DNA of 63,865 bases from Sphingomonadaceae bacterium (GTDB taxonomy: Bacteria; Pseudomonadota; Gammaproteobacteria; Burkholderiales; SG8-39). The notes under the pieces are model-generated. The model was not told the DNA's origin and made no database searches. It saw only the letters and a program-made list of their open reading frames with translations. The position numbers and the translations under genes were made by a program. The first letter of the stretch is position 1, and the number at the start of each line of letters is the position of its first letter. Location: NCBI GenBank assembly GCA_050257375.1, contig JBLMWT010000143.1, forward strand, positions 1 to 63,865, written 5' to 3'. Positions 40,643 through 47,541 of the stretch are shown here, in pieces.

Positions 40643-41179
40643 TCACGCCTCGGCGGCCGGTCCCCGCTCCGCGATCAGGTTCAGCAGCCGCGTGCTCGTC
40701 GTGCGCAAACGCTGCGACAGCATCAGGACCAGCTCCATCAGGATCTTGGAGCCGAGCAGCGGCTGCTCGACGATGATGCGAGCCAATCGGTCGCGGTCGA
40801 GCACGGCGAGCGTGGTCGCCTCGGTCGCGACGCAGGTGGCGAAGCGCGGCTCGCCGTCCAGCATCGACATTTCCCCCAGCGTCCGCCCTGCGTCGGCCAC
40901 GGCGATCACCTGCTGTCGGTTTTGCGCGTCGCGCTTGAGCACGTCGACGCGGCCTTCGAGCACGAGCAGCATGAAGTCGCCGCCGTCGCCTTCCTGGATC
41001 ACCTCGGCGCCGGCGCCGGCGCGATACACGTCCATGAAATGCGCCAGCGTGCGCACCTCGGAGGCGGAGAAATTCTCCAGCATGCGGCAGCGCGGAATCA
41101 GCACGTGGATCTGATTCGCGTACTGGGTTGCGTCGCCGAGGTACTCCAGGTGCGCGAGCTGCTTGGGGCGTTCGGCCAT
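40643..41179 (-). CDS. stand-alone cyclic-nucleotide-binding domain protein
   Basis: ATG 41179 lies inside ORF 40643..42034. cNMP-binding fold (...EVIQEGDGGDFMLLVLEGRVDV...GRTLGEMSMLDGEPRFATCVA). Confidence 0.8.
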   Translation of the reverse strand: MAERPKQLAHLEYLGDATQYANQIHVLIPRCRMLENFSASEVRTLAHFMDVYRAGAGAEVIQEGDGGDFMLLVLEGRVDVLKRDAQNRQQVIAVADAGRTLGEMSMLDGEPRFATCVATEATTLAVLDRDRLARIIVEQPLLGSKILMELVLMLSQRLRTTSTRLLNLIAERGPAAEA

Positions 41180-41220
41180 ATCGCGGACGGGGTCTGATCT
41201 CGCCGCATTATGCCGCGACT

Positions 41221-41976
41221 TTAGCCCGCCGCGGCGCGCGCAAGCAGCGAGATGCCGGACACGACGAGCAGCACGTACAGGATCCGCACCACGGCCACGG
41301 CCGGCACCGCTGTGTGCAGCCGGTTGCCGATCGCAAAGCCGCCGAGCAGCGCCGGGACGAGCATCAGGGCAAAGCCTATCAGGCCGTCCTGGGAGAGAAG
41401 TCCGGTGGCGCCGAACAGCACCGCGCGCACTACCGAGGACAGCATGATCGTCGCCGCATTGGTGGCGCGTAGCTCGGCTTTGTCGCGGATGCGGCCGCTG
41501 TTGTAGATCGCGTACAGCACGCCTCCGGTGCCGAACAGCGCCGAGAGCGCGCCCCCGGCGAGGCCGATCGGCGCGCTCCACGCGCGCGCAAGCTGCAAGG
41601 GCGCGCCACGGCGCGCCAGTCCATAGGCCGAGTACGCGAGAACGAATGCGCCGAGCGCGGCGAGCAGCCCTTGCTCGGGGAGCGCGATGAGCAGCGTCAG
41701 GCCGAGCGCCATGCCCGCGAGCATGAACGGCACCAGCCACGCGGCCTCGGAGTAGCGAATGCGGCGCCGAAAGCGCGCACCGAAGAGGGTGAATGCCGTG
41801 AGGTCGAGCAACATCATCATCGGCACGGCGAACCGGAGGGGTAGCAGCTGCGCGAGCAGCGGCAGGGCCACCACGGTGGAGCCGAAGCCCGTCAGTCCGT
41901 AGACCGCATAGGCGCCCGTCACGATCAGCGCCGAAAGGCCGATCGTTGCGGGCGAGAACGTCTCCAGGGCGATCAG
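41221..41976 (-). CDS. TauE/SafE family membrane transporter (start uncertain)
   Basis: Polytopic; GLTGFGSTVVALPLL and ALFGTGGVLYAIY motifs. There is no ATG/GTG/TTG at the conserved N-terminus. CTG 41976 overlaps the aroG stop (CTGA). Confidence 0.7.
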   Translation of the reverse strand: MIALETFSPATIGLSALIVTGAYAVYGLTGFGSTVVALPLLAQLLPLRFAVPMMMLLDLTAFTLFGARFRRRIRYSEAAWLVPFMLAGMALGLTLLIALPEQGLLAALGAFVLAYSAYGLARRGAPLQLARAWSAPIGLAGGALSALFGTGGVLYAIYNSGRIRDKAELRATNAATIMLSSVVRAVLFGATGLLSQDGLIGFALMLVPALLGGFAIGNRLHTAVPAVAVVRILYVLLVVSGISLLARAAAG

Positions 41977-43109
41977 TCGGTAGCGTCCGTGTTGGTGCCC
42001 GCGTCGGCGAGCGTGCGCCGCTTGCGCACGGCATCGGCGAGCACCTCCAGGGCGGCCGCGGAATCTTCCCAGCCGAGGCAGGCGTCGGTGATGCTCTGCC
42101 CGAAGGCGAGCGGCTGGCCCGCCACGAAGTCCTGGCGCCCCTCGACCAGGTTCGATTCGATCATCACGCCGACGATGCGCTGCTCGCCCGCGGCAATGCG
42201 CCCGGCCACATCGCCGCACACCTTGAGCTGCTGCCTGAAGTCCTTGCGGCTGTTGGCGTGCGAGCAGTCGATCATCAGGCGCTCGGCGAGACCCGCGCGG
42301 CGCAGCTCTTCGGCCGCGGCGTCCACGCTCGCGGCATCGTAGTTCGGCTGCCTGCCGCCGCGCAGGATGATGTGGCAATCGTCGTTTCCGCGCGTCTCCA
42401 CGATCGCCACCTGCCCGCTCTTGTGCACCGAGAGGAAGTGGTGTTCCTGGCGCGCAGCGAGGATCGCATCCACCGCGATCTTCACGTTGCCGTCGGTGCC
42501 GTTCTTGAAGCCGACCGCGGCCGAAAGCCCCGACGCCAGCTCGCGGTGCACCTGCGACTCCGTCGTGCGCGCGCCGATCGCGCCCCACGAAACCAGATCG
42601 CCGATGTACTGCGGCGAGATCACGTCGAGGAATTCGCAGCCTGCAGGCACGCCGAGCTGGTTGATGCGCACGAGCAGGTCCCGCGCGATGCGCAATCCTT
42701 CGTTGATGCGAAAGCTGCCGTTCATGTACGGGTCGTTGATCAGGCCCTTCCAGCCCACCGTGGTGCGCGGCTTCTCGAAGTACACGCGCATCAGGACCTC
42801 GAGCTCGCCCGCGTGGCGCTGCCGCTCGGCCGCGAGCCGGCTGGCATAGGCGAGCGCCGCGGCCGGGTCGTGAATCGAGCACGGCCCAATCACGACCAGC
42901 AGCCGGTCGGACTGCCCGTGGAGCGCCGCGCGCACGCGCCGCCTCGTGTCCGAGATGAGCGTCTCGACGGGCGTGCCCTGGATCGGGAAAAAGCGGATCA
43001 GGTGCTCGGGCGGAGGCAGCGGGACGATATTCTCGATGCGCTCGTCGTCGGTCAGCGAGGTCTTGTCTGTCGGCGGAACCGCCAGGTAGTTGTCAGTGGG
43101 TGCAGTCAT
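41973..43109 (-). CDS. aroG: 3-deoxy-7-phosphoheptulonate (DAHP) synthase, class I
   Basis: RLLVVIGPCSIHD and KPRTTVGWKGLINDP motifs. ATG 43109 chosen because the ORF-track TTG 43130 lies inside the U tract of the upstream terminator. Confidence 0.9.
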   Translation of the reverse strand: MTAPTDNYLAVPPTDKTSLTDDERIENIVPLPPPEHLIRFFPIQGTPVETLISDTRRRVRAALHGQSDRLLVVIGPCSIHDPAAALAYASRLAAERQRHAGELEVLMRVYFEKPRTTVGWKGLINDPYMNGSFRINEGLRIARDLLVRINQLGVPAGCEFLDVISPQYIGDLVSWGAIGARTTESQVHRELASGLSAAVGFKNGTDGNVKIAVDAILAARQEHHFLSVHKSGQVAIVETRGNDDCHIILRGGRQPNYDAASVDAAAEELRRAGLAERLMIDCSHANSRKDFRQQLKVCGDVAGRIAAGEQRIVGVMIESNLVEGRQDFVAGQPLAFGQSITDACLGWEDSAAALEVLADAVRKRRTLADAGTNTDATD

Positions 43110-43128
43110 GGGCGTCTTCGGCAGTGGC

Positions 43129-43163
43129 AAAAAAAAACCGCCAGGCTTTGCGGCTCTGGCGGT
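43129..43163 (-). terminator. intrinsic terminator of the aroG leader (attenuator)
   Basis: Minus-strand RNA ACCGCCAG-AGCCGCAAAGC-CUGGCGGU followed by a run of 9 U (plus-strand A9 at 43129-43137). Ends 19 nt before the aroG ATG. Confidence 0.7.
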
Positions 43164-43187
43164 TTTCGGGATCAGTTCGGGCTGCGG

Positions 43188-43253
43188 CTAGCCGTTCCCC
43201 TCCGCCAGTGGGCGCGGGAAAAAGAAGAAGAAGCCGTAAAACCAGCGTTTCAT
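43188..43253 (-). CDS. candidate Phe-rich leader peptide MKRWFYGFFFFFPRPLAEGNG
   Basis: ATG 43253 with GAGGG 7 nt upstream. 21 codons including W-F-Y and five consecutive Phe codons. TAG at 43190-43188. Confidence 0.65.
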   Translation of the reverse strand: MKRWFYGFFFFFPRPLAEGNG

Positions 43254-43461
43254 CGCAGTGCCCTCAGCCGAATTGAAGCACGGCACCCCTCGGCTTGGCA
43301 ACCAGAGCGTGATCAGCACTCGAGACTCACGGCTGCCAGGCCGACGGACGGCGGCCACACCGGAACCGGTGCACAGTCTCTCTGGCCCAAGTGTTGCTAC
43401 GCTAGAAGCAGTCGTGCTACGTTTTTCGCGCGGTCGTTCCGCCGAAAAACAAGGAGGCAAT

Positions 43462-44442
43462 ATGTCGGCAAGCGTCGCTCAACCTGTCGCCATTCCGGTC
43501 GCCGGCTTCAAGGACGTCTACTGCGTCGGCGACGTCGAGCGAGCCCTGCAGGAGCTGCCGCCCTCGTCGAACGAAGCCCTGCGCACGGTGTACGAGAAGA
43601 TGCTGCGCATCGGCGGCCAGCGCTTCACGGTCAAGCCCTCGACGATGCCGTCCATGGACGAGCTGTTCGAAGAACTACCCAACTTCACCGAGGTACTCGA
43701 GGACATCCGCCGCCAGCTCGCGCTGTGCATCGACTCGAGCGACTCGGTCGAGCTGGCGCCCGCGCTGCTGCTCGGCGAGCCCGGCATCGGCAAGACGCAC
43801 TTTGCGCGCCGCGTGGCGCAGCTGCTCGGCACGGGCTTCGGCTTCGTGCCGATGAGCTCGCTCACCGCCGGCTGGATTCTGTCGGGCGCGTCGTCGCAGT
43901 GGAAGAACGCCAAGCCGGGCAAGGTCTTCGAGACCTTCCTGCACGGGGATTACGCCAACCCCGTGATGGTGGTCGACGAGATCGACAAGGCCGCCGACGG
44001 CGGGCAGTACGACCCGCTCGGCGCGCTCTATGGACTGCTCGAGAGCGCAACCGCGACGCAGTTCGTGGACGAGTTCGTCGAAATTCCGATCGACGCATCG
44101 GGGGCGGTCTGGTTCGCGACTGCGAACGACGCTGCGCGCATACCGGAGCCGATCCTGAACCGCATGAACATCTACGAGATCGACCCGCCGGACGCCGCAG
44201 GCTCGGCGCGCATCGCGCGCACGATCTACCGCGAGATCCGCGGCGCGCACGACTGGGGGCGGCGCTTCCCCGAGGAGCCGGGTGCGGCCCTCGTCGACAA
44301 GCTCGCCGCGCTCACGCCGCGCGAGATGCGCCGCGCGGTGCAAAATGCGTTCGGTAACGCCAAGATCGCCGGCCGCAGCGAGGTGAGCCCGGACGACGTG
44401 CCCGACAACCGCGGCGCGCGCCGGCAGCGCGTCGGGTTCTAG
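43462..44442 (+). CDS. AAA+ ATPase with Lon-like ATPase module and no protease domain
   Basis: AAGGAGG RBS before ATG 43462. Walker A GEPGIGKT, Walker B VMVVDEIDK, ...FATANDAARIPEPILNRM sensor region. N-terminal ~110 aa not recognised. Confidence 0.8.
   Translation: MSASVAQPVAIPVAGFKDVYCVGDVERALQELPPSSNEALRTVYEKMLRIGGQRFTVKPSTMPSMDELFEELPNFTEVLEDIRRQLALCIDSSDSVELAPALLLGEPGIGKTHFARRVAQLLGTGFGFVPMSSLTAGWILSGASSQWKNAKPGKVFETFLHGDYANPVMVVDEIDKAADGGQYDPLGALYGLLESATATQFVDEFVEIPIDASGAVWFATANDAARIPEPILNRMNIYEIDPPDAAGSARIARTIYREIRGAHDWGRRFPEEPGAALVDKLAALTPREMRRAVQNAFGNAKIAGRSEVSPDDVPDNRGARRQRVGF

Positions 44443-44925: not shown

Positions 44926-47541
<2,616 letters not shown>

Follow-up and report, generated by a model that had tools for sequence, protein, structure and literature searches.

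In Escherichia coli, the genes for 3-deoxy-D-arabino-heptulosonate 7-phosphate (DAHP) synthase are controlled by the TyrR and TrpR repressors together with feedback inhibition, and attenuation is found only on the terminal branches of the aromatic pathway (trp and pheA). In pheL-pheA and pheM-pheST, a leader open reading frame (ORF) containing Phe codons is followed by three alternative hairpins (1:2, 2:3 and 3:4) and by a terminator that stands before a gene of Phe metabolism. Other attenuators are multivalent, such as thr, which combines Thr and Ile, and ilvGMEDA, which combines Ile, Leu and Val. The DNA analysed here is a stretch of 63,865 nucleotides (contig JBLMWT010000143.1 of assembly GCA_050257375.1, lineage SG8-39 of the Burkholderiales), referred to throughout as the window, and the element under study lies directly upstream of its gene for a Phe-type DAHP synthase (aroG). 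Judging from its folding and from comparison with related genomes, this element is very probably a classical ribosome-mediated (leader-peptide) transcription attenuator of aroG, and its counterparts are found upstream of the same gene in most of the related loci collected.

In function, the nearest precedent is aroR-aroF of Corynebacterium glutamicum. A leader peptide with the residues Phe-Tyr-Phe (aroR) precedes aroF in this organism, and read-through into aroF is raised under Phe limitation (Mentz et al. 2013, PMC4046766; PMC11802643, citing Neshat et al. 2014). Both systems place an aromatic leader peptide before a DAHP synthase gene, a likeness that has been drawn by function only. However, aroR-aroF is actinobacterial and has another peptide and another RNA, whereas in the Burkholderiales element, which is conserved order-wide, the aromatic block is far longer; independent origin of the two is likely. 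No attenuator at a DAHP synthase gene other than aroR-aroF was found documented. The diversity of pheL has been described in Enterobacteria (PMC3082878). With pheL-pheA (RF01859) and pheM-pheST the element shares the same mechanism of leader, hairpins and terminator, but its target is the common entry enzyme rather than the Phe branch or the synthetase, most of its members mix Phe, Tyr and Trp codons, and it belongs to the Burkholderiales and not to the Gammaproteobacteria. The trpL attenuators of E. coli and Sinorhizobium meliloti follow the same three-hairpin logic, and in S. meliloti the leader ATG is also the start of the trpL transcript, which is leaderless (PMC7298713). A leaderless start is also implied for 36 of the 64 family loci discussed below, although the window copy itself is not leaderless and, unlike the family, trpL senses Trp only and regulates trpE(G). 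As in thr and ilvGMEDA, a single leader of the family carries codons for several end products of the pathway; unlike them, these are the three aromatic amino acids and the gene encodes the first common enzyme, and the window copy is probably sensitive to Phe only in effect.

Leader ORF and alternative helices upstream of aroG

A leader ORF upstream of aroG was first proposed in a sequence-only reading of the window, and direct reading of the minus strand gives the same 21-codon frame, MKRWFYGFFFFFPRPLAEGNG, with the same GAGGG sequence 7 nt before its ATG. The coordinates of these and of the other features are collected in Table 1. Aromatic residues occupy eight of nine consecutive positions of the peptide, a clustering of end-product codons within a short translatable ORF by which attenuators are recognised. 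The regulated enzyme catalyses the entry step for Phe, Tyr and Trp, which matches the codons of the leader and speaks for attenuation. Against the background of the window, which has a G+C content of about 69%, five Phe codons in a row with U9 after them are unusual, and this is the sole ATG-started mini-ORF with at least five aromatic residues in nine on either strand of the 63.9 kb.

The RNA that follows the aromatic block can adopt three alternative helices. The terminator hairpin, ACCGCCAG-N11-CUGGCGG (43163->43138), begins 24 nt past the leader stop codon, and the U run after it ends 19 nt before the aroG ATG (43109). Both positions agree with the sequence-only reading, whereas its U count does not, since the U residues number nine in all rather than a paired U plus nine. 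The 19 nt between U run and aroG ATG are too few to accommodate a promoter of their own, so that aroG would be expressed solely by read-through. The heptamer CUGGCGG of the terminator 3' arm is repeated within the leader ORF (43208-43202), as had been noticed before. In the 2:3 antiterminator, this copy forms a helix with CCGCCAG (43162-43156) that is extended by GGGA (43199-43196) opposite UCCC (43171-43168), the extension being separated from the core by a 2x5 internal loop in the minimum-energy fold. The extension had been predicted as GGGG:CCC; it is present in the window as GGGA:UCCC but has no common register across relatives. The free energy of the antiterminator (-21.9 to -23.2 kcal/mol, and -21.9 kcal/mol with region 4 forbidden) is similar to that of the terminator (-20.9 kcal/mol), and the two structures are mutually exclusive, so that the comparison of folds bears out the exclusion that had been proposed. 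A third element, absent from the sequence-only reading, is the 1:2 hairpin (43221-43195; -13.6 kcal/mol), which is made of UUUCCC/GGGGAA and CGCC/GGCG pairs and overlaps codons F11-F12. The minimum-energy fold of the whole leader transcript contains 1:2 and 3:4, which corresponds to the 'off' state. The locus in this way combines a terminator before the gene, an antiterminator that shares a strand with it and uses the end of the leader ORF, and a 1:2 hairpin over the regulatory codons, which is the arrangement of an attenuator.

In the mechanism proposed, transcription would start at the predicted promoter, approximately 10-13 nt upstream of the leader ATG, and a ribosome would start on the 21-codon leader while RNA polymerase moves on. 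With Phe-tRNA well charged, the ribosome would pass the Phe block onto region 2 and then reach the stop codon; region 2 being masked, 3:4 would form and the terminator would release a transcript of approximately 135 nt before aroG. If no ribosome were loaded, 1:2 would form and so again would the terminator. A ribosome stalled on the UUC/UUU run would instead cover region 1 and leave region 2 free to take the terminator 5' arm (CUGGCGG:CCGCCAG together with GGGA:UCCC), by which the terminator would be blocked and the polymerase would read into aroG. In most relatives, the charging of Tyr- and Trp-tRNA would likewise be sensed. This is the logic of pheL-pheA, pheM-pheST and trpL, to which the sequence-only reading had likened the locus, and it is supported by the folding described here as well as by the conservation and correlated variation described below.

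Table 1. Features of the aroG leader region and of the neighbouring genes in the window
Feature	Position	Strand	Remarks
Predicted -35 element, TTGCCA	43296..43301	-	18 nt from TTCAAT
Predicted extended -10 element, TGC-TTCAAT	43272..43280	-	18 nt before leader ATG
Shine-Dalgarno-like GAGGG	43261..43265	-	7 nt 5' of leader ATG
Leader ORF MKRWFYGFFFFFPRPLAEGNG	43253->43188	-	21 codons and TAG (43190-43188); ATG at 43253
Aromatic codon block W4 F5 Y6 G7 F8-F12	43218..43244	-	UUC UUC UUC UUU UUC at 43232-43218
Region 1, UUUCCC-G-CGCC	43211..43221	-	5' half of 1:2 hairpin; overlaps last two Phe codons
Region 2, CUGGCGG-AG-GGGAA	43195..43208	-	leader codons 16-20; pairs with region 1 or region 3
Region 3, UCCC-GAAAA-CCGCCAG	43156..43171	-	antiterminator with region 2, or terminator 5' arm with region 4
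Intrinsic terminator, GAAAACCGCCAG/loop/CUGGCGG and U9	43129..43167	-	3' arm 43144-43138; U run 43137-43129
aroG-type class I-alpha DAHP synthase	41973..43109	-	378 amino acids; TIGR00034, 524 bits
ORF with C-terminal cyclic-nucleotide-binding domain	40643-42034	-	463 amino acids; follows aroG, overlapping its 3' end by about 60 nt as listed
AAA-family ATPase (Lon-like ATPase module only)	43462-44442	+	divergent from aroG; ATG at 43462
Alanyl-tRNA synthetase, alaS	44926-47541	-	neighbour

Conservation of the element in Burkholderiales

A search for DAHP synthase with one genome per species gave 80 loci with 61-83% identity, nearly all from Burkholderiales, the closest of which are metagenome-assembled genomes (MAGs; 79-83% identical) labelled Burkholderiales, 'Gammaproteobacteria' or 'Bordetella'. 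Most of these loci have an aromatic-rich mini-ORF with the consensus ..FYFxYFWFS.. at a distance of 75-250 nt before the DAHP synthase gene, and the closest leaders read MTRWYFGYFFHFPRPLAEGNG (L002), MSRYFFFGFFYFPCLLAEGTG (L047) and MSPRFYAYFFFFSRPAAEGTG (L001). When defined by an ATG start and at least five aromatic residues in any nine, such a mini-ORF is found in 62 of 76 sense upstream regions; the antisense regions contain one in 2 of 76 cases and the control windows in 11 of 1274 (approximately 1%). Almost all leader-bearing loci also have the terminator, AACCGCC(G/A)G-loop-C(C/U)GGCGG followed by U6-9, the stem of which hardly varies. A covariance model derived from an alignment of 61 elements matches the window element at 75.9 bits (E = 9e-17), where it finds a single sense-strand copy, and it added three loci (L012, L053 and L062) as well as two that are truncated by contig ends (L056 and L026). 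The full element is present in 66 of the 80 loci, distributed over Comamonadaceae, Burkholderiaceae, Oxalobacteraceae and Alcaligenaceae-like lineages, so that the conserved F-rich mini-ORF and hairpins expected upstream of aroG orthologues are indeed there. Two further loci (L063 and L075) have an aromatic leader ORF with another downstream structure, and in 12 of the 80, including Rhodocyclales, Polynucleobacter, Ferrovum and one Cupriavidus necator locus, the element was undetected.

The presence of the element can be compared with the type of the enzyme. The best solved relative of the window enzyme is the Phe-sensitive AroG of E. coli (462 bits, compared with 366 bits for the Tyr-sensitive AroF). 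With the AroG equivalog model the enzyme scores 540.8 bits, below the cut-off of 568. Ser occupies the position of AroG Ser211 in the window enzyme and in 67 of 68 element-bearing loci scored. The element-free C. necator locus (L014, strain EM36) has Gly at this position, and Gly at the equivalent position is reportedly a Tyr-type signature in work on yeast Aro3/Aro4, which suggests that the L014 enzyme is a Tyr-type paralogue. The element-free enzymes of Rhodocyclales, Polynucleobacter and Ferrovum have Ser.

Pairing statistics were obtained over the 61 aligned sequences, with slid registers and shuffles as controls. In the 3:4 terminator, 87.8% of cells are paired (slid registers 31-63%); the core CCGCC:GGCGG is invariant, while at 151:167 either G-C (33 sequences) or A-U (25) is found. 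The antiterminator core of 7 bp (2a:3a) reaches 86.6% (slid registers 17-56%), and its pair 66:151 is U-A in 20 and C-G in 18. For the outer helix of 1:2 (UUCUC:GAGAG, in the window UUCCC:GGGAA) the value is 89.5%, with all slid registers lower and none of 500 shuffles as good, and compensatory changes are seen at 53:76 (UA in 46, CG in 5) and at 52:77 (CG in 47, UA in 6). The variable position of the shared heptamer shifts together in the leader tail and in the 5' and 3' arms of the terminator, as C/G/C in 18 loci and U/A/U in 17, and in these three-strand combinations the compensatory stem changes that the sequence-only reading had called for are found. The RNAalifold consensus of the 61 sequences consists of the terminator only, the alternative helices being specified by hand.

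Folding of each sequence was modelled with a ribosome stalled in the aromatic block; the RNA was free from a point 13 nt 3' of the first base in the A site, and region 4 was still untranscribed. For 59 of 61 sequences, the fold of lowest energy in this state joins the terminator 5' arm to the leader tail, and the fold with the real tail is on average 6.3 kcal/mol more stable than with shuffled tails, being lower in all 61. In the ribosome-free state, 1:2 pairing belongs to the minimum-energy fold of 49 of the 61. When the stall position is moved codon by codon, the antiterminator is permitted until the A site has reached the final aromatic codon (F12 in the window) and not beyond it, and 395 of 441 aromatic codons fall within the permissive stall window.

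The two halves of the leader ORF are conserved in different ways. The aromatic block is kept as peptide, its codons varying synonymously (TTT 171 and TTC 110; TAC 61 and TAT 49), and a leader contains a mean of 4.6 Phe, 1.8 Tyr and 0.8 Trp, with all three residues present in 46 of 61. In the tail, the GGCGG core is read from codon position 1 in 33 leaders (..GGRE.., ..AAGE..) and from codon position 3 in 26 (..LAE.., ..LAD.., ..AVE..). Because the motif survives this change of reading phase, the constraint on it is at the level of RNA rather than of peptide. P-L-A-E/D tails accompany CCGCCAG terminators and P-G-G-R-E tails accompany CCGCCGG terminators.

Some loci depart from the common form. 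In L012 (2305-2429) the variant leader MRTTVRYHFWHFHIQHLTGAGVANA has His codons among the aromatic ones (Y-H-F-W-H-F-H) together with the usual tail and terminator, and was detected by the covariance model only. Aromatic leader ORFs also precede the DAHP synthase gene in L063 (2302-2466; MANPVRCFSYFWFSYFACEGRG...) and L075 (MSRYFSFFSWYGYFAAGQVERAVV...), where the downstream hairpins differ and are not homologous to those of the rest of the family. These two MAGs are labelled Chloroflexota/Anaerolineae and are probably mislabelled Betaproteobacteria.

Alternative explanations and counter-evidence

The same parts could belong to a constitutive small-RNA or small-ORF gene acting in trans, aroG then being transcribed by leaky read-through without regulation by tRNA charging, an explanation that is considered very unlikely. 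The terminated product would be a stable-looking RNA of approximately 135 nt with a strong 3' hairpin, and for trans functions of an attenuator product rnTrpL and peTrpL, both derived from the trpL attenuator of S. meliloti, offer a precedent (PMC7298713). However, the element always precedes one and the same biosynthetic gene with its orientation unchanged, its codon content fits the pathway of that gene, and its tail is not conserved as a peptide. Moreover, the conserved 1:2, 2:3 and 3:4 alternatives would be needless for a plain small-RNA gene. The terminated RNA could have a trans role in addition to attenuation, rather than replacing it.

Also very unlikely is antitermination through another sensor, be it a TnaC-like arrest by free aromatic amino acids, a TRAP-like protein or a ligand-binding RNA. 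Aromatic residues with Pro after them in the nascent chain (FFFFFPRP in the window) might in principle be enough to slow the ribosome, but the residues past the aromatic block are clade-specific and read in two phases, which an arrest peptide would not tolerate; the reading of the GGCGG tail in two phases therefore argues against an arrest of the TnaC type. The element likewise has no conserved structured domain beyond three simple helices, no match in Rfam and no repeated protein-binding triplets, and its architecture suffices for the classical mechanism. That a T-rich stretch, an open frame and a terminator merely came together by chance in a divergent promoter region is refuted by the comparative data, for although G+C-rich words such as the repeated CTGGCGG are common at 69% G+C, no second such mini-ORF occurs on either strand of the 63.9 kb and neither the frequency in orthologous upstream regions (62 of 76, as against approximately 1% of control windows) nor the covariance match (E = 9e-17) fits with chance.

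Ribosome-mediated attenuation is the preferred explanation, and several observations weigh against it or against parts of it. The helices are almost invariant and formal covariation rests on few columns; furthermore, the split between C-G-C and U-A-U follows the major clades and may represent few events. The formal covariation evidence is modest for this family, and the case draws its strength from the consistency among all three strands and from conservation that does not depend on reading phase. The second antiterminator helix (2b:3b; GGGA:UCCC in the window) is not supported by a fixed-register test, with 50.5% of cells paired compared with 25-64% in slid registers and no single register; the window fold does contain it, but for the family as a whole it is unproven. 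In the stalled-state folds, a count of at least five of seven bases paired is a weak control, since it is reached by 49% of shuffled tails, and for this reason the energy difference is the useful measure. The equilibrium scan sets the 3' edge of the stall window but not its 5' edge, because 2:3 is more stable than 1:2, and for the model to hold, 1:2 has to form before 2:3, as the usual kinetic argument assumes. Loci differ in how far region 2 lies from the stop codon (2 to 33 nt). The codons W4, F5 and Y6 of the window copy are 15 nt or more upstream of region 1, too far to mask it, and hence the window copy probably senses Phe only, via the Phe run; in Comamonadaceae-type leaders, Tyr and Trp codons appear to be within reach of region 1. 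The predicted promoter also puts the Shine-Dalgarno-like sequence of the window at the extreme 5' end of the RNA.

Promoter, gene neighbourhood and relation to catalogued leaders

The layout of the promoter predicted for the window, with N18 between its two elements, is repeated in the three closest loci, where TTGCCA (L001), TTGCCT (L002) or TAGACA (L047) precedes TTGAAT. A stringent consensus scan of the region returned no promoter, the -10 element of the window being missed since its position 2 is T. Alignment of the upstream regions nevertheless shows a positionally conserved extended -10-like motif, TGnT(A/T)nAnT (TGCTACATT, TGCTTGAAT). In 36 of 64 loci, among them L001, L002, L047 and most loci of the Comamonadaceae type, it ends 6-9 nt before the leader ATG, and this spacing implies that the leader mRNA would be leaderless in these loci. 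In the window copy, the -10 element is separated from the ATG by 18 nt in which GAGGG is included, and the leader is not leaderless; GAGGG sits within an extra stretch of approximately 11 nt that has no counterpart in the closest relatives. The loci of Burkholderia, Caballeronia and Paraburkholderia have TTGcCA-N17-TATAAA approximately 35-45 nt upstream of the leader ATG.

The upstream neighbour of aroG, the AAA-family ATPase gene, is divergent, and the terminator is therefore not owned by an upstream gene. On the other side, no terminator-like site was found between aroG and the 463-amino-acid ORF, which may for this reason be co-transcribed with aroG and thus be under the same attenuator.

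Searches of catalogued families returned no equivalent of the element. The Rfam 15 leader families (Phe_leader RF01859, Trp, His, Leu and Thr) gave no match at E <= 10 in 42800-43800, and scans at gathering score gave no family in the whole 63.9-kb window and no leader family in 20 related loci. The Rfam scan that had been suggested from the sequence alone accordingly finds no Rfam 15 family that covers the element. Matches to NsiR1 and CC0196 were rejected as chance terminator-like hits. Leader peptides matched no family of NCBIfam (seven peptides) or Pfam (six peptides) at E <= 10, and exact look-up of 10 leader peptides among approximately 15 billion protein sequences found none present as a called protein. 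The exact AroG sequence of the window is likewise not on record.

A comparative genomics study of proteobacterial aromatic regulons describes TyrR and TrpR on the aro genes and attenuation for trp and pheA only (PMC5343134), and aro genes are unmentioned in a genome-wide survey of attenuators (PMC2965389). No aroG attenuator in Betaproteobacteria was found in the full-text literature searched, although a prior listing in older subscription-journal work is possible. Attenuation at the shikimate entry step had been called unusual wiring, a description that holds for Proteobacteria but not for bacteria generally, given aroR-aroF of C. glutamicum. The mechanism is a textbook one of the pheL/trpL/hisL type. 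The element, which is apparently uncatalogued, stands out by its target, by a tri-aromatic leader, by its conservation across the order and by translation that is probably leaderless in most members. A wider proposal, for and against which the balance is even, is that the element represents an uncatalogued family across the Burkholderiales, a tri-aromatic attenuator that gates the Phe-type DAHP synthase and is the first proteobacterial case at the shikimate entry, with the leader leaderless in most members and the window copy derived through the gain of a short 5' untranslated region containing a Shine-Dalgarno sequence and of a pure Phe run.

The codons of the leaders have a further property in common, in that all the regulatory codons (Phe UUY, Tyr UAY and Trp UGG) and the conserved Ser codon that follows them (UCN) start with U. 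In E. coli, these codons are read by tRNAs that carry the MiaA-dependent i6A37 modification. Coupling of trpL to tRNA modification has been reported in Pseudomonas aeruginosa (PMC13434334). By analogy, and as an idea only, aroG expression may also report the state of tRNA modification.

In a large betaproteobacterial order, the entry of carbon into the aromatic pathway appears to be set by the charging of aromatic tRNAs. The family is a clean natural case of one ORF of which half is constrained as peptide and half as RNA, and it adds a leader-peptide/RNA family that is currently missed by genome annotation pipelines. It also offers a simple, testable regulatory element in organisms of biotechnology and of plants and soil (Paraburkholderia, Variovorax, Acidovorax and Comamonas) and an obvious target of derepression for engineering the production of aromatic compounds.

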